Positions 21,113 through 40,507 of a stretch of 64,000 nucleotides of DNA are shown here, piece by piece (within the stretch, counting starts at the first letter, position 1; every line of letters begins with the position of its first letter). Origin of the DNA: an uncultured archaeon (lineage in GTDB: Archaea; Asgardarchaeota; Lokiarchaeia; Sigyniarchaeales; SOKP01). The stretch spans positions 64,001 through 128,000 of the forward strand of contig CAZALK010000001.1 in assembly GCA_964486045.1 (NCBI GenBank). The letters run 5' to 3'. The notes below the pieces were generated by a model. That model was not told where the DNA came from and did not search any database. It saw only the letters and a program-made list of their open reading frames with translations. Both the position numbers and the translations under genes were made by a program.

Positions 21113-21712
21113 TTAATACGTTTGTCGCTCTAATATTTTTCGTGTTAATTGTTCAAAAGCTTGACCAATATTTTCACCCGTTTTAGAGGAGATTTTAAGA
21201 TAGTCAATTAAATTATATTCACTAAGAAAAGATTGGGCATAATCATCGTCTACTTGAATTTCATCAACCAAGTCTAATTTTGTGCCCAGAAAAAGAACAG
21301 GAAGACTTGGGTCTCCCTTACGCACTATGTTTAACCATTGTTCCAAATTCTCCAAGCTGGATATTCTTGTAAGGTCAAACATGAGCATAGCTCCTTTTGC
21401 TCCTAATACATAACTTTCAAGCAGGAATCTAAACCGTTCTTGGCCACCGAAGTCCCAGAGCTGCAAGGTACAGTGTTTATCGTCAATCTCCGTCTCTTTT
21501 AAAAAAAACTCAACCCCAATGGTCATCTTAGTTTCTGCTGAGAATTTCCCCTCCACATATCGAGTAAGGAGCGTTGTCTTCCCCACACCTCCTTCTCCCG
21601 CAGTCAATATTTTGAGTATGAACTTTTTTGGCACGTTACTTACCCGGTTTCGTTTTCTGGTTGAGAATCCTAAAGATCGATCCAAATTGAAAGTACTGTT
21701 TGATTTGCCCAA
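21113..21712 (-). CDS. Rab/Ras-like small GTPase
   Basis: G1 GEGGVGKT, G2 TIGVEF, G3 WDFGGQE, G4 TKLD, G5 ISSKTG; the true start may be the GTG of VPKKF. Confidence 0.93.
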   Translation of the reverse strand: MGKSNSTFNLDRSLGFSTRKRNRVSNVPKKFILKILTAGEGGVGKTTLLTRYVEGKFSAETKMTIGVEFFLKETEIDDKHCTLQLWDFGGQERFRFLLESYVLGAKGAMLMFDLTRISSLENLEQWLNIVRKGDPSLPVLFLGTKLDLVDEIQVDDDYAQSFLSEYNLIDYLKISSKTGENIGQAFEQLTRKILERQTY

Positions 21713-22570: not shown

Positions 22571-23086
22571 ATGACAAGTCCCATACTTTTAAAAGTGATC
22601 ACAGCGGGAGAAGGAGGGGTAGGCAAAACAACGCTCCTTTATCGATACGTGGAAGGAAGGTTTCTGGTTAACACTAAAATAACACTAGGAGTCGAATTTT
22701 TCATGAAAGAGCTAAATATCGAAGGAAGACAAATTAATTTACAAATTTGGGACTTCGGTGGACAAGAACATTTTAGACCCCTATTAAAAAACTATTCTAT
22801 GGGGGCAAGAGGGGCTCTATTACTCTTTGATCTCACTCGTCCATCCAGTTTAGAGAAAATTGATGAATGGGTGAACATTTGTAGAGGAGAAAATCCAGAA
22901 ATTCCTATAATTTTCTTAGGAACTAAATTAGATTTAACAGAATCAATTTCTGTCGATGATGAATTCGCCTTAAAGTTTCCTAAGAAGTATGATTTCTTTG
23001 AATTTTTGAAGATTTCCTCTAAAACGGGAAAGAATGTGAATTTAGCATTCGAGTTATTAGCAAGTAAAATATTAAAGAAGCTTTAG
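22571..23086 (+). CDS. Rab/Ras-like small GTPase
   Basis: GEGGVGKT, TLGVEF, WDFGGQE, TKLD, ISSKTG; paralog of 21113-21712. Confidence 0.93.
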   Translation: MTSPILLKVITAGEGGVGKTTLLYRYVEGRFLVNTKITLGVEFFMKELNIEGRQINLQIWDFGGQEHFRPLLKNYSMGARGALLLFDLTRPSSLEKIDEWVNICRGENPEIPIIFLGTKLDLTESISVDDEFALKFPKKYDFFEFLKISSKTGKNVNLAFELLASKILKKL

Positions 23087-30983: not shown

Positions 30984-32320
30984 TTGATATTCATATTTAT
31001 AAATAGTAAAAACAAAACAATGAATAATATGAACGAAAATAAGCGATTTGAAACGCAAGTTATTAGTGATGAAATATTAGCCAAATTAAGTCTTCAAAAC
31101 CGATATAAATTTGTGAACGATAACTTAAGAACAATACTTTCTGAAAAACAATTTAGTTTCCTTAATCAAGTCCAAGATTTCTGTCTGAATTATGAAATTA
31201 AGAATAAAATAACGCATGGACCAGAAGAAGACATATATGATTGGGTACCAGACTTTGGAAAAGAAGGATATATTACACGTCAAACACCCTATGAATGCAT
31301 CGATTTAAATTATGAATATTATGGAATGGCTATTGAATTTATGAGAATTTTAGCTTTAGATAATTTCGATCCCCAATTTGCGATGAGTACAGGTGCAACA
31401 GTTATTTGTCTCAATCCTATTTATGCCCATCATGAAAATATTCCTGTGAGATTACAAGCCTTAAAAGAACTCGTCACAGGTCAAGAAGTAGGATGTTTAT
31501 TAATTACAGAACCCGAAAGAGGTTCTGATGCAGTACATCAATTAACCACTTGTGATGAGCAGGATGATGGTAGTTTTCTGCTAAATGGGGAGAAAATTTT
31601 TAATACAAATGCCCCAAAAGCGAAATGGGCTGTTTCCTATGCTACCGCAGAAAAAATCAGGGAAATTTAATGGCACAGTTTTTAATTAACACTTCCTGGG
31701 AAGGTTGGAACATAAAACGGGTCAACATTCCTTGGACACCGAAGTTATTTATAGGAAGAGAACGACTTGAGAACCTGCGAGTATCAAAAGAATATGTATT
31801 AGGAGGAATCGGAAAAGGGAGAGAACACCTTTTTGAAGGCTTAATTCCTGAGAGAATCGCTATAGCTGTGAGATGCGTCAGTGCGTGCTGGGGAGCTTTA
31901 GCTCATTCTGTAATATATGCAAACATGAGAAGACAATTCGATAAAGAAATTTTACTTTTTCAAGGAGTTGGATTTACCTTAGCAGACCTTTGGGCAAAAA
32001 CTGCTGCTATAACTCACGGAGTACTAAAATTCGCAGAAACCTATGATGAGAAGTTTAAAAAATACGGTGGAAATTTACCAGATCCAATAGCTCAATCAAT
32101 GGTTTCTTCAGCGAGTCAATACAAATATATTTGTGCTAAATTAGCAAAGGAAGTATGCTTTGAGTCAGCCCAAACCATGGGGGGGGCCGGAGTGTGCGAT
32201 AATACCTTAATGTATGATTATATTGGTGTTTCGAGGATTTTGGAAGTTGTTGGAGGCACGAAGGAAGTCCAAAAACTGATAATGTCAAGGGGTTTAAGGC
32301 GATTATTCAAAAACCTTTAA
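30984..32320 (+). pseudogene. Acyl-CoA dehydrogenase paralog split by a 1-nt frameshift
   Basis: ORFs 30984-31670 and 31625-32320 are the N- and C-halves of a paralog of 27301-28584; the A6 run at 31651-31656 corresponds to A7 in the intact paralog (ATAEKNNGNLMAQF). Confidence 0.85.
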
Positions 32321-32749: not shown

Positions 32750-33403
32750 TTAACCGGCTGAAGTAGTTTGCACTTCTTCCTCTTTTCGAATCTTTTTAAT
32801 TCTTTTCTTTTTAGTGGCGTTTTTTATAAAATTAAGAGTTTCATTTGGTACATCCAATTCTTCAATCTCAAGATCATGTATCATAAAATCCAACCCAACT
32901 GTTAATTTATAATTTTCTTCAAATCTTTTTTTGGTAACAACGTTTATTAATGTGGATTTTCCGACAGCTGCAGCTCCTACGAGAAGAATTTTGAACCTAA
33001 AATGCTTCGAATCTACGACTTCACCTAATCTTGGCTGTAAATCTATTAAAGATGTTAAAGCTAATCTGTGAAATAATACTTCCACGTTTAAATTTTTTAA
33101 TGCTGATGTCTCTATATACTCAAATAGATTATATTGGTTTACCATTTGGATTATTTTTTCTCGTGGAATGGTTTCCCCAATATCTTTTTGTAAATCATCT
33201 TTATTTCCAACTAAAATAATAGGAATATTTCCAGAACGTTCCCGGATATCGTTGAAGTATTCGTTAATTGAATCAAATGTATTCGGGCGTGATAAATCAA
33301 AAACCAGAGCGACTGCTGCTACACCTTTGAAAAAATCAGTTTTAAAAAAACTAAACCTCCCTTGTCCTCCAGTATCCCATAAAGATAATGTAATGGTTAT
33401 CAA
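32750..33403 (-). CDS. Circularly permuted Rab-like small GTPase (G3-G4-G5-G1-G2)
   Basis: WDTGGQ (aa 9), GNKDD, ETSAL, then FKILLVGAAAVGKST and TVGLDF near the C-terminus. Confidence 0.88.
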   Translation of the reverse strand: MITITLSLWDTGGQGRFSFFKTDFFKGVAAVALVFDLSRPNTFDSINEYFNDIRERSGNIPIILVGNKDDLQKDIGETIPREKIIQMVNQYNLFEYIETSALKNLNVEVLFHRLALTSLIDLQPRLGEVVDSKHFRFKILLVGAAAVGKSTLINVVTKKRFEENYKLTVGLDFMIHDLEIEELDVPNETLNFIKNATKKKRIKKIRKEEEVQTTSAG

Positions 33404-33473: not shown

Positions 33474-35522
33474 TTATTTAATTGAGAGCAAATCCATTTT
33501 ATCGGCAATAGTTTTATTTAATTCTGTCATCTTTTTCTCTAATGTTTTAAGTTCTTTCTTAATTTCCTCATATCTACTCTCTTGGTTATTCAATTTTTTA
33601 ACGTATCTTTCTTTTAAGGAAACGGATTGGCTATCATCACCTAAAACAGAGATATTATCTCGTAACCTAGCTTGCTCATCAGTCATTAAATCTCGTTCTT
33701 CATTCAGCTTCTCTTGTTCATCTCTTAAATTGTTTAGGGTGTGAATTAATTCTGCGATTTCTTTTAATTGATTTTCAAGATCAGGATCTATAAATTTTTG
33801 TTTAACATAAAACCCAATTCTCTTGAAGAAATCGTCTTTGGAATAATTCCAAAGATAATTACTGGAATAATTTTCTTTTTGTTCTTTTAATTTAAAATTT
33901 ATTGCATCTTTTGGTTTTAAGGTTATCTTAAACCGCCAATAATTTGGGGTTTCTTCAGGATCCACAGGCTTTTCGACAATTTTATAGCCAGAAGATTTAG
34001 GATGATCTAAGTATAGCTCTTTCTCTTCTTCCGTTTTATTTCGAATTTTATAAGTCGTCATTGAATTTGTATAATAATATTCATAGGAATATCCACCACC
34101 AAATTTAACTCTATGAACATTCAGATTTTGAATTCGTTGCTCATGAATAACAATTACAGCCTGTTCAACAGCATAATTTAACAATCTCGTATCATCTTTA
34201 TTTAAAAATGGAATTATGGCTTCCCCGGCTAGATTATCATCATATATTATTGTAACGGGTCCACTCTCTAAAGTTAGGTTAGTGTTATTGGTTATTTCAA
34301 GGCAAGCATTTGGATTTTTATCATGATCGTTTTTATTATAAAGTAAAATCCTTTTTGCTTTAATCGACTCTGTAAGAATTGGAACCAGAGCCGATTTCTT
34401 TCTCTTAATGGTTACTGGATTTGTAATATTATACTCAAATAATTCTCCCAAATCTTTCGTTTGAGTTTTTGCTCCAGCCTTCAGTTTATCCATGATCACA
34501 CCATCAGATATATCCCCTCCGATTCCTCCAGTTGCAGCAGCTGGCGCACCAAGTGAGCGTTTGGCCATTCCTCTATTCCTTGAGCTCTCTGCTTTAGCCA
34601 TTCTTGGTGCGGGAGCAGGCATTGCGATATCGTAATCGTCAAATTCTTCCATAGCCAATCCTTCCTCAATTTCTGTTGGTCTGGCACTTAATACTTTCGG
34701 GGGTTGGATTACAGGACGCTGAATATATATTGGGAAATAAAAATTATATCGAAAACTGACAGGGAGACCACTTATTAAAGATAACTCAATATCTTCCCAG
34801 TCCTGATTTGTAGTGTTTTCTATGAGCCCCCAACCAGACAATAAACACTTCTGCTCCATAGCTTGTTTTTTGCTCATTATTAATCTATAGGAAGTCTTCC
34901 AGATTGGTGCCTCACGAATATATGAGACAAAAATATTTCTATCAATATCGTCCACTCCCCCAGATTCACAGTTTATCACTATCTTCTTAGAATCTTTTTT
35001 CTTTCCAGCAATTACAGTATCTAAAAAGAATTTTAAGTCTTTCTTGATCTCTTCATTTAATATCTCAAAAGATCTGACTTCTGAGAATGGGATCTTTACT
35101 ATAATATCATCATCCTGTAGGAGAACTAATATCTTCTGGATGATTTTATCGAATTTGCTTAATTTTTCAACAGTTTCAGTTCCTATTATCTTACCTGTAA
35201 CACTTTTGTTTCCACCAATTGTTAAACTTACGCTGGCACCTTTTATTTGGGTAACAAGTGAGGAGAAAGAATCTATATCAGGTATATTTAACATTATTGA
35301 TTTTAAGAGTTGTGAAGTCTCTAAAGCTGCGTCGTAAGAAATAGACGATATATATCCTTTTTCACTAGTATCTAAAACAAAAAGAGATTTTAAAACATCA
35401 TTCATCTCATCAATTTTGAACTCAAGCTCAAATGTGCTTGATCCTTTTAATGTACCCTCAAGGATATAATAGGAAACACCATGTTTAAAAATTATAACTT
35501 TTTTAACTTTGAGTTTCGACAT
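33474..35522 (-). CDS. DUF4139-like protein with C-terminal coiled coil
   Basis: VIIFKHGVSY, MNDVLKSL, PIWKTSYRL, ENTT..DW, GELFEY..PVTI..SALVP. Confidence 0.7.
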   Translation of the reverse strand: MSKLKVKKVIIFKHGVSYYILEGTLKGSSTFELEFKIDEMNDVLKSLFVLDTSEKGYISSISYDAALETSQLLKSIMLNIPDIDSFSSLVTQIKGASVSLTIGGNKSVTGKIIGTETVEKLSKFDKIIQKILVLLQDDDIIVKIPFSEVRSFEILNEEIKKDLKFFLDTVIAGKKKDSKKIVINCESGGVDDIDRNIFVSYIREAPIWKTSYRLIMSKKQAMEQKCLLSGWGLIENTTNQDWEDIELSLISGLPVSFRYNFYFPIYIQRPVIQPPKVLSARPTEIEEGLAMEEFDDYDIAMPAPAPRMAKAESSRNRGMAKRSLGAPAAATGGIGGDISDGVIMDKLKAGAKTQTKDLGELFEYNITNPVTIKRKKSALVPILTESIKAKRILLYNKNDHDKNPNACLEITNNTNLTLESGPVTIIYDDNLAGEAIIPFLNKDDTRLLNYAVEQAVIVIHEQRIQNLNVHRVKFGGGYSYEYYYTNSMTTYKIRNKTEEEKELYLDHPKSSGYKIVEKPVDPEETPNYWRFKITLKPKDAINFKLKEQKENYSSNYLWNYSKDDFFKRIGFYVKQKFIDPDLENQLKEIAELIHTLNNLRDEQEKLNEERDLMTDEQARLRDNISVLGDDSQSVSLKERYVKKLNNQESRYEEIKKELKTLEKKMTELNKTIADKMDLLSIK

Positions 35523-35602: not shown

Positions 35603-36064
35603 TTATAGCTTTTCTTCCAAGATTTCAAGCAAATCTTCTTCTAGAGTTGAAGATTTTTTTGGATTTTCTACGATAATACCCAGAAGATCACCACTTTCAT
35701 TGAAGAAGTAAAACGTTGGGAACCTTTTTAAATTAAACTTGGTTTTGACTGCTTCTGGAGGAGAATATAGAATTTTAAAATTCTCATCTTGATTTTTCAT
35801 CAACTTCATTATTTTTATCATTCTTGGTACATTTCTGGTACAATCTGGACACCCATTTTTCCCTAAAACAACAATCTTTAATGTTTTTTTTTTTTCGTTA
35901 AGAAGCTTGTTAATTTTTTCTAAAATATCTAATTTTGGTTCATAGGTTTTATAGTTTAAAGCGATTTTTTCTTTATATTCTTTTAAGTATTCTTCAGGGT
36001 TCATTGTTGGTGAAACAAGATCTCCCCATTTCAAATTTTTTAAATCAATTTTTATGTTTATCAT
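35603..36064 (-). CDS. Thioredoxin-family protein (paralog 1, internal deletion)
   Basis: GCPDC active site, cis-Pro FPTF; lacks the ~19-aa insert present in the paralogs. Confidence 0.8.
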   Translation of the reverse strand: MINIKIDLKNLKWGDLVSPTMNPEEYLKEYKEKIALNYKTYEPKLDILEKINKLLNEKKKTLKIVVLGKNGCPDCTRNVPRMIKIMKLMKNQDENFKILYSPPEAVKTKFNLKRFPTFYFFNESGDLLGIIVENPKKSSTLEEDLLEILEEKL

Positions 36065-36072
36065 AAAATCAT

Positions 36073-36576
36073 CTATAGCTTACGTTCCAAGATTTCAAGT
36101 AAATCTTCTTCCAGAGTTGAAGAATATTTAGGATTTTCAATGATAATACCCAGAAGATCACCACTTTTATTAAAAAAGTAAAACGTTGGAATTCTTTTTA
36201 AATCAAATTTAGGGTCGTTTGCTTCAGATGGTGACCATTCTTTATGCCAAATAGCTTCTCCGGGCATATGTGAAGCATTTGTCATAATACCAAATAGAAT
36301 TTTAAATTTTACCTCTTTATTTTTCATCAACTTTACTATTTTTATCATTCTTGGCATATTTCTTCTTGAGTCTGGACACCAGTTTGCTCCTAAAGCAACA
36401 ATTCTTAATATTTCTTTTTTTTCTTCCAGAACCTTGCTGATTTTTTCTAAAATGTCTAATTTTGGTTTGTATGTTTTATAGCTATCCCGGATTATATCCC
36501 CATATTCTTTTAAAAAGTCATCAGGGCTCATTGTGGGTGAAACAAGATCTTCCCATTTCAAATCATCTGTTGCCAT
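36073..36576 (-). CDS. Thioredoxin-family protein (paralog 2, monothiol CPDS)
   Basis: WCPDS, IPTF. Confidence 0.85.
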   Translation of the reverse strand: MATDDLKWEDLVSPTMSPDDFLKEYGDIIRDSYKTYKPKLDILEKISKVLEEKKEILRIVALGANWCPDSRRNMPRMIKIVKLMKNKEVKFKILFGIMTNASHMPGEAIWHKEWSPSEANDPKFDLKRIPTFYFFNKSGDLLGIIIENPKYSSTLEEDLLEILERKL

Positions 36577-37405
36577 ACGTTATAAGATATTCATTTAAGG
36601 TTAAAAAAATGATCATAATAGTTCATAAAATCATATTTGAAACCAATATAAAAATAGAAATAAAAAACAAAGAGAATAAATCAAAGAGGAATACTTAATT
36701 CCAATTATAACTAAGGAAATCTTATCTGATTTTAACATTCATAAAGTTTTGGGCGGTCAATTGCTTCATGTTGATATTTTTATGATAAGTTAAGCAAGGA
36801 TACTGCTTTCTTTCACCTGAGAATATTTTAATGATTATGACTGTTATAGCTTACCTTCTAAGATTCCAAGCAGGTCTTCTTCTAGTGTCGAAGAAAATTT
36901 AGGATTTTCAACAATTATGCCTATTAGATCATCATTTTCATTAAAAATGTAAAAAGTTGGGATTTTTTTTAAATCAAATATGGCTTTAACTGCTTCTGGA
37001 GGAGAACGTTTTTTATGCCAAATAACTTCTCCAGGACGATGCAGTGCATTTACGACAATACCATAGAGGATTTGAAGATTTACGTCTTTATTTTTCATCA
37101 ACTTAATTATTTTTATCATTCTTGGCACATTTCTTCCACAGTCAGGACACCATTTTGCCCCTAAAGCAACAATCTTTAATGATCCTTTTTTTTTGGTAAG
37201 AAGCTTGCTGATTTTTTCTAAAATGTCTAATTTTGGTTTGTATGTTTTATAGTTATCCCCGATTATATCCCCATATACTTTTAAATATTCATCAGGGCTC
37301 ATTGTGGGTGAAACAAGATCTTCCCATTTCAAATCATCTGTTACCATACGTTATAAGAATTCATCCAAGATTATAAAAATTATCATAATAGTTCATAAAA
37401 TCATA
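36577..37405. repeat. Duplicated upstream/promoter segments of the thioredoxin paralogs
   Basis: 36577-36635 and 37348-37405 are near-identical (acgttataaga..atcataatagttcataaaatcata). Confidence 0.85.
36844..37347 (-). CDS. Thioredoxin-family protein (paralog 3)
   Basis: WCPDC, IPTF. Confidence 0.87.
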   Translation of the reverse strand: MVTDDLKWEDLVSPTMSPDEYLKVYGDIIGDNYKTYKPKLDILEKISKLLTKKKGSLKIVALGAKWCPDCGRNVPRMIKIIKLMKNKDVNLQILYGIVVNALHRPGEVIWHKKRSPPEAVKAIFDLKKIPTFYIFNENDDLIGIIVENPKFSSTLEEDLLGILEGKL

Positions 37406-37452: not shown

Positions 37453-38007
37453 TCATTTTTTTTGAGGAATCTTATTTTTTAAGATTAGTTTTGTTAATAA
37501 TTGATAAATTTTATGAACGTTCTCTCCAGTCTTAGAACTACACTCTATAAATCCGTCAGCACCTTTAGAATGTGCTACTTCCATTGCCTTTCTTGTTGAA
37601 ACTTCCTTAAGGTGAATTAGATCTGTTTTACCACCAACAAAAATAATAGGAATTTCGTAACTTATTTCTTTATTAATTATTTCATACCAATCATCAACGT
37701 GTGCTAAGGAGCCATAGTTGGTAATATCAAACATAAAAATCGCTCCATTAGCGCCTCGAATATAAGAAGGAAACAAAAATCTAAAGCGTTCTTCACCAGC
37801 AAAATCCCAAATCTGAAGTTTTACGTTGAAGTTATCTATAATTATAGCTTTAAGTAAGAACTCTACTCCAATCGACATTTGAATGTCTGCTTTAAAAAGA
37901 TTTGTTAAGAATCTATGAGTTAAAGTGGTCTTTCCAGTTTGAGAATCTCCGAATATGACAATTTTAAAAGTGTATATTTCACTTGACAACCCTAAAACCC
38001 AAATCAC
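37453..38007 (-). CDS. Rab-like small GTPase
   Basis: GDSQTGKT, SIGVEF, WDFAGEE, GKTD, ECSSKTG. Confidence 0.92.
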   Translation of the reverse strand: MIWVLGLSSEIYTFKIVIFGDSQTGKTTLTHRFLTNLFKADIQMSIGVEFLLKAIIIDNFNVKLQIWDFAGEERFRFLFPSYIRGANGAIFMFDITNYGSLAHVDDWYEIINKEISYEIPIIFVGGKTDLIHLKEVSTRKAMEVAHSKGADGFIECSSKTGENVHKIYQLLTKLILKNKIPQKK

Positions 38008-38176: not shown

Positions 38177-40507
38177 TTAGTGCAAATCCTTATTGATCAG
38201 ATTACCTAACAAAGATAATGCTCCTTGTTTATCTAATGGTTCGTTTGAGTTACCACATTTTGGAGACATAATGCATGCTGGACAACCATTCTTTGTTCTA
38301 CAACTACATGATTTAATTAACTTAAAAGCCATTAATATTAGTTCATTTAAGTTAAAATAAAGTGATTCTGAAACCCCAATGCCACCTCTATAAGCATCAT
38401 AGATATAGATTATTGGCTGTTGCTTAATAGGATCGAAATCTATTGAAACTCCACCTAAATCCCAACGAGATATCTGGGCTAGTGCTGGAGCCATCGCAAT
38501 CATCGCATGTTCAATAGCATGAATGGTTCCTCCTAAATCATATCCGTTCAATTCTAATTCTTTTTGAGATTCAAATGGAATTGTGAACCATACGGCTTGT
38601 GATTCAAATCTTATGATTGGGATATCCTCAAGTGGATGCCTTGAGCGGATCTCTTGAGTTAAAGTGTCAACAACTTTGTAGGAATAATATTCATACTCTA
38701 CTTTCACTTTTCCAAAAAACGAGGTTATTTTATCATCCTCTCCTGCTACACCTTGATAAATTACTTCAAGAGGAGTAATGTCCGTATGCTTTAAAGATTG
38801 AGTATAATAATCCACATTTTTTTTAGAAAGATATACCATTCTCTCTTCCATATCGAGATCTTCCACTAGATATGATTCAGTTTCGTAAAGATAAACTGCA
38901 CCGGGGTGTAAATCTCGATACACAAAGCTATCACCTTCAACAGTTAATAGTTGTTCACCAAATTCAGTTCTTAGCATAACTTTGAAACTTTTAGCAGAAA
39001 GATCATTTAATCCATACTTTTCATTTGGAAAAAAATCACTATTCCAATAATACCGATCTCCCCTCTTCATGAGCAACGATTCTGAAACCAATTCTTCTAG
39101 GCATCCCAAAAAGTAATTTTTATCCGGGACTCCAAATTTCTCATATTCATCGATTTTAATAGGAATCTCCTTAGACGCACAGCAGAGGTGGTTCTTAGTA
39201 ATATATTTATTATTTAATGTAATCAGAGCTTCTTCTTGAATGGGTCCAAATAGTTGATCAGGATTATGAATGTAAAATAAATCTAATGGATCTGCCATAG
39301 GTATCAGAGTTGAGATGGAGAGATCAGTCCCCCTTCCAGAACGACCAATTTGCTGTTTGAAGCTTGAAATTGTCCCAGGGAAACCAGAGCTTATTGTAGC
39401 ATCTAGAGAACCGATGTCAATTCCTAATTCAAGAGCATTGGTAGAACTTACGCCTAATATTTTTCGGCTTTTGAAGCCTTGTTCTATCTCTCTTCTTTTC
39501 TTTTTGCTAATGCCGGCTCGATAACTGAAAATTTTATCCTTTATGATTGGAAGAGCTTTTCTTGTCCAAATTGCCTGCAATTCAGCCATTTTTCTAGATA
39601 ATGTAAAAGTTAATGTTTGTAATCCACCTTTGAATCTTAAATGGCTATTAAATAGGTTTTTGGTTTCCTGATGGGGTGAACGATATTTTTTTGAAATAGT
39701 GTCATAAGGTAAGTCCCATAAAATAACTTTCTTAACTCCTGAAGGGGAATCATCTCGATCTATAACCTCAAATGTTTCTCCAACTAATTTTTCACTAAAT
39801 TCTTTGGGATTATAAATAGTAGCACTGGATAAAATCCACTGTGGTTCTACATTGAAAGCGTCAAGCATTCTTTTAAATCTTCTGAGAAGGAGTGCAAAAT
39901 TTGAACCAAAAATACCGCGATATATGTGAATCTCATCTAGAACGACATATTTCAAATTCTTGCATATCCGACTCCATCTCTTTTTAAAACTTGGCAAATA
40001 GAAATGAAGCCCATAAGGGTTAGTTATAATAATATTAGCATTGTTTAAGACGAACCTCTTTTCATTCGCATCTATATCCCCATCATAAACTCCAATTCTA
40101 TTTTGTTTTATATTAGTATCTGTTAATAACTGAGATAAGACAGTGAATTGATCTCTCGCTAAGGCTTTAGTTGGAAAAATATAAATAGCCGTTGTTTTTG
40201 GGTTCTCTAAGATTGACTGTACTACAGGAAGATTATAACAGAGTGATTTCCCAGATGCTGTAGAAGTTACAATAACTGTATTCTTCTCTTTACGAATTAA
40301 ATTTATTGCATCTGTCTGATGACGCCACAGATTTAAATGATTATTATCTAACCAACGTTGAAGTCGTTTTCTTAATGGCTCCTCTAATTCACCATATTGA
40401 GCTTTTTTTTGGGGAATATGCTCAATATGATAAATCTGATTGGAATAATAATCTTGAGACTTAATATAGCGTAAAAAATCTTCGAATTCAACCATAGATA
40501 GTTTCAA
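38177..40507 (-). CDS. DEAD/DEAH helicase with DUF1998 (Hrq1/MrfA type)
   Basis: TASGKS, PTKALARDQ, DEIH, SAT, LELGIDIG, QQIGRSGR; C-terminal CSC...GCPAC...C. Confidence 0.93.
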   Translation of the reverse strand: MKLSMVEFEDFLRYIKSQDYYSNQIYHIEHIPQKKAQYGELEEPLRKRLQRWLDNNHLNLWRHQTDAINLIRKEKNTVIVTSTASGKSLCYNLPVVQSILENPKTTAIYIFPTKALARDQFTVLSQLLTDTNIKQNRIGVYDGDIDANEKRFVLNNANIIITNPYGLHFYLPSFKKRWSRICKNLKYVVLDEIHIYRGIFGSNFALLLRRFKRMLDAFNVEPQWILSSATIYNPKEFSEKLVGETFEVIDRDDSPSGVKKVILWDLPYDTISKKYRSPHQETKNLFNSHLRFKGGLQTLTFTLSRKMAELQAIWTRKALPIIKDKIFSYRAGISKKKRREIEQGFKSRKILGVSSTNALELGIDIGSLDATISSGFPGTISSFKQQIGRSGRGTDLSISTLIPMADPLDLFYIHNPDQLFGPIQEEALITLNNKYITKNHLCCASKEIPIKIDEYEKFGVPDKNYFLGCLEELVSESLLMKRGDRYYWNSDFFPNEKYGLNDLSAKSFKVMLRTEFGEQLLTVEGDSFVYRDLHPGAVYLYETESYLVEDLDMEERMVYLSKKNVDYYTQSLKHTDITPLEVIYQGVAGEDDKITSFFGKVKVEYEYYSYKVVDTLTQEIRSRHPLEDIPIIRFESQAVWFTIPFESQKELELNGYDLGGTIHAIEHAMIAMAPALAQISRWDLGGVSIDFDPIKQQPIIYIYDAYRGGIGVSESLYFNLNELILMAFKLIKSCSCRTKNGCPACIMSPKCGNSNEPLDKQGALSLLGNLINKDLH

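Follow-up and report, generated by a model that had tools for sequence, protein, structure and literature searches.

The locus and its permuted GTPase gene

The window, by which we mean the whole 64,000-nucleotide stretch of Lokiarchaeial DNA that was analysed, carries near its midpoint an open reading frame (ORF) for a Rab-like GTPase whose conserved motifs stand in a circularly permuted order (Table 1). A gap of 70 bp separates it from the end of the upstream gene at 33474, and 133 bp lie between it and the next gene downstream. An earlier, first-pass annotation of this DNA had maintained that no N-terminal G1/G2 region is missing from the gene, and the sequence bears this out. Between the upstream in-frame TAA and the TTG start stand six codons (AGA GGC TTT GAA CTA AAT), none of which could serve as a start, and a longer N-terminus containing G1 and G2 is thereby ruled out.

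Table 1. Coordinates of the permuted GTPase gene, its elements and its immediate neighbours in the window
Feature	Position	Strand	Details
Circularly permuted Rab-like GTPase, whole ORF	32750..33403	-	217 aa; TTG start at 33403; stop codon 32750-32752
Upstream in-frame TAA	33422..33424	-	read directly in the sequence
Strand beta3 and G3	33362..33400	-	residues 2-14; Trp9; DTGGQ with catalytic Gln14; true N-terminus of the protein
G4 motif NKDD	33194..33205	-	residues 67-70
G5 motif TSA	33101..33109	-	residues 99-101
New linker, helix 5 to strand beta1	33005..33043	-	residues 121-133; conserved Pro124, Arg125, Gly127, Glu128
G1 P-loop GAAAVGKS	32954..32977	-	residues 143-150
Switch I / G2 (YKLTVGLDF, Thr168) and strand beta2	32864..32911	-	residues 165-180; last element of the G domain
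C-terminal tail	32753..32854	-	residues 184-217; acidic turn, then polybasic stretch; helix in the model
Upstream neighbour, 682 aa	33474..35522	-	weak DUF4139 match; coiled-coil C-terminus
Downstream neighbour, 72 aa	32398..32616	-	acidic, coiled-coil-like; four Cys

Motif order and sequence relationships

Along the 217-residue chain the motifs fall at residues 10-14 (G3), 67-70 (G4), 99-101 (G5), 143-150 (G1) and Thr168 (G2), giving the linear order G3-G4-G5-G1-G2 in place of the canonical G1-G2-G3-G4-G5. This permutation had been proposed at first pass, and alignments of the two halves confirm it. The Pfam Ras profile (PF00071) is matched at E=1e-34 in two pieces, residues 3-115 corresponding to profile positions 47-157, while residues from 138 onward match the first ~40 positions of GTPase profiles. 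Searched with phmmer against the PDB, residues 5-115 align with Rab11 58-166 (strand 3 to helix 5) and residues 134-181 with Rab11 5-52 (beta1, P-loop, helix 1, switch I and beta2). By these alignments the break in the chain falls exactly in the beta2-beta3 turn. The permuted arrangement of the motifs is far beyond chance.

Membership of the Ras superfamily is supported by scores of 119.9 bits for PF00071 (cut-off 21.6) and 66.9 bits for TIGR00231, small_GTP (cut-off 42.5), and all five motifs are present with their key residues: the P-loop Lys/Ser, the switch I Thr, DxxGQ, NKxD and SA. The top PDB sequence matches are Rab11, Rab7, Rab6, Rab8 and a Thorarchaeota Rab, with Rab outranking Ras. 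The protein possesses a Rab-type switch I (TVGLDF) and WDTGGQ, and both TVGLDF and Trp9 are conserved in the family. The Cys of Rab prenylation is absent, the tail ending ...EEEVQTTSAG with no Cys. Two further peculiarities are found in the active site: the P-loop has Ala at both the Ras Gly12 and Gly13 positions, and the window copy has Gly after the catalytic Gln, where the family has Glu. NCBIfam holds no specific model for the permuted family, and an Atlas feature search returned generic Ras/Arf clusters only.

Predicted fold

An AlphaFold2 prediction based on 24 close homologues reached a pLDDT of only 52.8 and was discarded in favor of one built on a more diverse alignment of 55 sequences down to 36% identity. 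The latter gave a pLDDT of 83.0 and a pTM of 0.81 (79-83 in pLDDT over the five models), with low confidence confined to switch II (residues 15-20) and switch I (160-170). The elements follow one another in the model as b3, b4, a3, b5, a4, b6, a5, b1, a1, b2 and a C-terminal helix at 187-216.

Since order-dependent aligners are unable to superpose the whole domain on a canonical GTPase, two overlapping VIA-align comparisons were used. Against Rho, Rab and Ras structures, model residues 1-120/125 superpose over 115-125 aligned residues (Z 12-13.3, rmsd 1.5-2.1). Against YlqF-type structures (YlqF 1puj, YqeH 3h2y and two pre-60S factors), residues 14-179 superpose over 138-149 residues (Z 11.3-13.1, rmsd 3.0-4.3), and against RsgA-type structures (YjeQ 2yv5, RsgA 6h4d and YloQ 1t9h), residues 18-179 over 121-128 residues (Z 9.2-11.4, rmsd 2.6-3.2). 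The two sets of superpositions overlap and together span the whole domain, including the join between helix 5 and beta1. Because the YlqF- and RsgA-type structures share this join, the beta1-helix1-beta2 segment is evidently modelled in normal G-domain geometry. Foldseek is in agreement, as is an Atlas shape search (150 residues aligned to a 170-residue Ras model). Among the best 50 VIA-align rows, no solved structure has exactly the G3-G4-G5-G1-G2 permutation. The protein is thus modelled as one closed G domain, the outcome that the first-pass annotation had left to structure prediction.

Distribution and selection

A search of 5.8 billion proteins returned 378 homologues. The 120 listed among them are 70-91% identical to the query over 88-100% of its length and measure 207-277 residues; in every one of the 120, G3 lies no more than ~27 residues from the annotated start (mostly at position 9-10), and G1 lies near 136-160, mostly at ~142. 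An exhaustive HMMER scan of 1.84 billion representatives yielded about a dozen 50%-identity clusters with a collinear permuted match. Looking through Asgard genomes for the same motif order, as had been suggested at first pass, we found the permuted GTPase in 66 of 400, always as a single copy; a profile from divergent long forms gave a similar distribution (68/400). The 5.18-Mb genome from which the window comes contains 65 small-GTPase matches and one permuted copy only. Within the genus of the window, 49 of 53 genomes carry the gene, the four that lack it being 58-88% complete. Several further genera of the family carry it too, and its occurrence is limited to two families (f1 and f3) of one Asgard order, with none in the other 31 families sampled among the 400 genomes.

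An alignment of 55 diverse members shows Gly13, Gln14, Lys68, Asp70, Ser100, Gly143, Gly148, Lys149 and Thr168 to be invariant. It further reveals a conserved linker, P-R-L-G-E ... H-F-R-F-K, and, after strand 2, a conserved acidic turn followed by I-P-x-E-T and a basic stretch. The Lokiarchaeial permuted family is under strong purifying selection. Estimates of dN/dS (Nei-Gojobori) against the two closest orthologues are 0.062 and 0.053, and by part against the closest orthologue they are 0.063 (beta3-helix5), 0.040 (beta1-beta2) and 0.107 (tail); with dS at 1.2-1.8, near saturation, the ratios are rough, yet they are clearly far below 1. The first-pass annotation had taken the intact motifs as a sign of function, and given this selection and the wide conservation of the family the gene is almost certainly real and functional.

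The genus g12, which largely lacks the GTPase, includes a single genome (G256) with a permuted copy. There the gene sits on a short contig, accompanied by one of two copies of the 72-aa gene; the 682-aa gene is located elsewhere, as is the remaining 72-aa copy (contigs C223 and C19). The permuted copy may be bin contamination from the genus of the window.

C-terminal tail and membrane anchorage

The window copy has no hydrophobic segment after strand 2 and hence no tail anchor in the sense of a single C-terminal transmembrane (TM) helix. Its tail carries a net charge of +9 in 18 residues, and with a hydrophobic moment of 0.04-0.4 it is polybasic, not amphipathic. Many relatives are built otherwise. 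A C-terminal TM or hydrophobic helix is present in P0102, P0119, P0122, P0123, P0126, P0130 and P0140, and a C-terminal TM helix also in L036 and L037 (other genera) and in L030 (the window's genus); most representatives of the 50%-identity clusters have TM segments, as do loci of other genera and of the second family. Judged by open-frame length, longer TM-type copies make up 12 of 49 in the window's genus and 13 of 14 in the family's other genera. No member of the permuted family has a C-terminal Cys, the relatives ending in either a polybasic stretch or a TM helix.

The second family contains forms of 439-755 residues in which an N-terminal permuted domain is followed by a linker rich in Pro and Lys, then by another conserved region and, at the C-terminus, by membrane segments. 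Pfam finds nothing outside the G domain in these long forms, neither a VWA nor an A2M domain. Two of them, at L034:4412-5731 (439 aa) and L035:64-2187 (707 aa), are each followed by a divergently oriented TPR protein, the L035 one matching both JAB/MPN and a SNAP-like TPR.

As most relatives have a TM anchor, or a linker and membrane domain, after strand 2, the ancestral protein was probably a self-anchored membrane GTPase with no need of prenylation. From the sequences we infer that this anchor was then lost repeatedly within the window's genus, as opposed to gained. The window copy, which comes from the anchor-losing lineages and retains a polybasic tail only, would be soluble or peripherally attached; with a tail that is not amphipathic, any membrane binding is a guess from charge alone.

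Phylogeny and origin

A tree was built in which the 55 permuted rows had been re-ordered in silico to the canonical order. All 55 form one clan (SH-aLRT 99) that splits into a short-form and a long-form clade, and within the short forms TM-bearing and TM-less proteins are interleaved. This topology points to a single permutation event for the Lokiarchaeial family. One candidate for a second permuted lineage, P0248 (243 aa; collinear, 32% identity), was rejected: it groups with tandem Rab-like proteins instead and looks like a fragment spanning two tandem domains.

The first-pass annotation had imagined the permuted gene to derive from two tandemly fused GTPases that lost sequence at both ends. 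Such an origin is plausible, since these genomes often contain tandem multi-GTPase proteins as well as GTPase genes lying side by side, but the tandem proteins are not sister to the permuted family in the tree. By identity (42-47%), the nearest canonical-order relatives are P0160, P0168 and P0172, each combining a Ras-like domain with another, degenerate G-like region that begins FRFL(I/V). In P0160 and P0172 the C-terminus carries a TIR domain as well (Pfam TIR_2, E=6e-14 and 2e-15), and such TIR fusions are the closest of all, at 44-47% identity. These nearest relatives are probably archaeal, and some share the P-loop flavour of the permuted family. A word-indexed search for longer proteins produced canonical-order multidomain GTPases only, with no fused forms of the permuted family and no cpRAS; the long forms described above were found by the exhaustive representative search and by genome searches.

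Comparison with known permuted and canonical GTPases

The topology itself is already known. For the eukaryote-specific cpRAS, Elias & Novotny (2008, Biol Direct 3:21, PMC2430557) describe the order G3-G4-G5-G1-G2, with the chain cut between strands 2 and 3. The first-pass annotation had assigned cpRAS the order G4-G5-G1-G2-G3, which is wrong by that paper, and its claim of a different permutation opened at the beta2-beta3 hairpin holds in part: the break is there and the arrangement does differ from that of YlqF and RsgA, but it is identical to that of cpRAS. The likeness between cpRAS and the archaeal protein extends to helix 5 joined directly to strand 1, to the presence of all motifs intact and to membership of the Ras superfamily. 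The differences are equally plain. cpRAS is a typical member of the RAS family with a TIE G2 motif, is always contained in larger proteins (cpRAS-VWA of 840-970 aa or a macroglobulin-like protein of 3933 aa) and has a 40-66 residue N-terminal lead (PMC2430557), whereas the archaeal family is Rab-type with the G2 sequence YKLTVGLDF, has strand 3 at its very N-terminus and consists of small proteins with or without a C-terminal TM anchor, the window protein standing alone at 217 residues. In addition, cpRAS is eukaryotic and the archaeal family is confined to one Lokiarchaeial order.

The fold of cpRAS has been homology-modelled only (PMC2430557), and no experimental study of it was found in the literature searched. 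According to a survey of 2008 quoted in the same paper, cutting the beta2-beta3 turn should prevent folding of the G domain; Anand and colleagues, also quoted there, hold that the cut should hinder folding. To the claim that folding would be prevented, Elias and Novotny offered cpRAS as a counter-example (PMC2430557), and it was the only one. The literature searched, incomplete in its coverage, contains no description of an archaeal permuted small GTPase, which speaks only weakly for novelty. The archaeal Rab-like family is therefore best regarded as a separate, apparently undescribed case of a known topology. Its origin is likely independent of cpRAS, with which it was compared by published description as opposed to aligned sequences.

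The better-known permuted GTPases YlqF/RbgA, RsgA/YjeQ, YqeH and Nog2/Lsg1 (the YRG class) resemble the window protein in having a permuted G domain whose helix 5 runs into strand 1. They differ in their order, G4-G5-G1-G2-G3, opened after strand 3, where the window protein has G3 at its N-terminus, and in being universal TRAFAC ribosome-assembly factors with extra RNA-binding domains. Correspondingly, NCBIfam scores are far below the cut-offs for YlqF (20.4 bits against 208.2) and YqeH (29.7 against 297.4). Canonical Rabs (Rab11, Rab7 and the Thorarchaeota Rab 7ezb) provide the best sequence and structure matches and share the Rab-type switch I, WDxxGQ and the aromatic residues conserved on the Rab effector face. 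The motifs of Rabs, however, run from G1 to G5, and eukaryotic Rabs are prenyl-anchored after helix 5, whereas the permuted family is anchored, where it is anchored at all, by a TM helix after strand 2.

Proposed mechanism and alternative explanations

Taken as a whole, the observations are best explained, at a probability we would put at roughly 80%, by a working, circularly permuted Rab-like switch, one of a Lokiarchaeial family, that forms one closed G domain and was ancestrally anchored. The chain runs from beta3 through switch II and beta4 to helix 5, and from there by a short linker through beta1 and the P-loop, helix 1 and switch I to beta2. The N-terminal strand 3 would pair with the C-terminal strand 2 to give one ordinary G domain, and the protein would most likely bind and hydrolyse GTP as a Rab-like molecular switch. 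Canonical Ras and Rab proteins have three features on the side of the domain that points away from the nucleotide: the N-terminus, the helix 5 end and the turn between beta2 and beta3. With this geometry, the permutation would keep the switch regions exposed, while the C-terminus of the chain, along with any anchor, would be transferred from helix 5 to where strand 2 ends, on that very side. In Arf-type GTPases, the interswitch strand beta2 slides and couples the nucleotide state to membrane binding. By analogy, an anchor or polybasic tail growing from beta2 might mechanically couple the GTP/GDP state of the permuted protein to the membrane, an idea that we regard as attractive but doubtful.

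One alternative, in which the ORF has no function and represents either a solitary relic in decay or a wrong assembly of tandem GTPase genes or of a double-GTPase gene, draws on the abundance of tandem proteins and adjacent GTPase genes in these genomes, whose beta3-to-beta2 span aligns collinearly with the permuted protein. Yet a protein of 207-243 residues, or its TM-extended equivalent, recurs on well over 100 independent contigs with a strand-3 start each time, there is one copy per genome, an in-frame stop lies upstream, and dN/dS is about 0.05-0.06 in both halves, so that the probability of decay or misassembly is practically nil. A lone decayed copy, a misassembly and halves that fail to make one domain had all been envisaged at first pass; each was examined and none holds. 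In another alternative, a domain-swapped dimer or oligomer, the beta1-helix1-beta2 segment of one chain would complete the beta3-to-helix5 part of another, as might be expected where the hairpin tying strands 2 and 3 has been cut, where the linker from helix 5 to beta1 is only ~13 residues long and where, by the argument of Anand and colleagues quoted above, the cut hinders folding. Co-variation is moreover blind to the distinction between contacts within and between chains, and a monomer model is compatible with a domain-swapped dimer. On the other hand, helix 5 ends close to where strand 1 begins in canonical G domains, all five confident monomer models (pLDDT 79-83, pTM 0.81) have the linker in place, and the YlqF-type proteins are monomeric domains with the same helix5-to-beta1 join, across which the model superposes. 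We consider swapping quite improbable.

A closed domain might nevertheless bind nucleotide without cycling, as a locked or pseudo-GTPase that serves as a scaffold. The Ala residues at both Gly12/Gly13 equivalents, which characterize the short-form clade throughout, the window copy included, could slow hydrolysis (the long forms mostly have Gly at the Ras Gly13 position, as GAAGVGK or GAGGVGK), and the neighbourhood contains no evident cognate GAP or GEF gene. Against this, Gln14 (catalytic), Thr168 of switch I and the Asp/Gly of G3 are all invariant or nearly so, and many working Rabs have some other residue than Gly where Ras has residue 12; a non-cycling scaffold is accordingly unlikely. A different kind of alternative concerns history, in that the archaeal family and the eukaryotic cpRAS could stem from one permutation event: CPRas might descend from the archaeal family, or a gene might have passed between eukaryotes and Lokiarchaeia. 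The two agree exactly in motif order and break point, and in a 2026 paper from the Elias group CPRas is counted among what the last eukaryotic common ancestor potentially had. Nonetheless, cpRAS is RAS-type with TIE inside VWA or macroglobulin-like proteins of 840-3900 aa, while the archaeal proteins have the Rab-type LTVGLDF, match Rab structures best and stand alone; they are known from two families of one order and from none of the other 31 sampled; and their nearest canonical relatives by identity are probably archaeal and share their P-loop flavour. A common event is thus very improbable.

Implications for Asgard GTPase biology

Asgard archaea possess many Ras-like GTPases, mostly without lipid-modification motifs. 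A built-in TM tail is one way in which these organisms can tie a Ras-like switch to a membrane. Were the coupling of beta2 to an anchor to prove true, it would constitute a link between a Rab-like switch and a membrane not known from any canonical small GTPase, in archaea without prenylation. In the family, moreover, a small archaeal protein that stands alone has long kept a cut in the beta2-beta3 turn while strong purifying selection acted on it; such a topology is clearly viable and therefore probably arose at least twice. The window copy, being short, anchor-less and probably soluble, is convenient for structural and nucleotide-binding work, and if naturally soluble as supposed, this 217-residue protein would be the first easily tractable one for solving a G3-G4-G5-G1-G2 G domain. 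The restriction of the family to one order speaks for a lineage-specific invention; its inheritance by eukaryotes is unlikely, and it consequently carries limited weight for eukaryogenesis.

Gene neighbourhood

The 682-aa and 72-aa genes flank the permuted GTPase gene in most genomes of the genus, and across the taxonomic family they occur in 105 and 113 of 135 genomes, respectively. In g12 they are found in 38/42 and 37/42 genomes and are directly adjacent. As the two genes adjoin where the GTPase is absent, the GTPase gene appears to sit inside an older pair. Where a genome has both the GTPase gene and the 682-aa gene, the two mostly lie side by side, although the 682-aa gene is distributed much more widely. 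Two 100%-complete genomes have the GTPase and no match to the 682-aa protein. We considered the products of the two genes as partners of the GTPase and set this inference aside, because both are widespread in genera without the GTPase and some complete genomes with the GTPase are without the 682-aa gene.

Farther out, these genes are bordered by an acyl-CoA dehydrogenase gene at one end and by thioredoxin-like genes at the other. The acyl-CoA dehydrogenase gene, at 30984-32320 (+), is split into two overlapping ORFs of 228 aa (middle domain) and 231 aa (C-terminal domain), while its orthologues are single genes of 427-428 aa (L013 8119-9405 and L036 2230-3513); this suggests a frameshift near 31625-31670, due to sequencing error or to a gene that has become a pseudogene. 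Three tandem Thioredoxin_9 paralogues (153, 167 and 167 aa) stand at 35603-37347 (-), upstream of the 682-aa gene; at the corresponding place L013 has just one such gene. A canonical-order Ras-like GTPase of 184 aa (Pfam Ras, E=1e-43) is encoded 4 kb from the permuted gene, at 37453-38007 (-), and the window has three more small-GTPase matches, at about 21143-21469, 22733-23074 and 37489-37824. The stretch 38177-40507 (-) encodes a 776-aa DEAD-box helicase that has a winged helix of the HRQ1 type and ends in an MrfA Zn-binding (MZB) domain.
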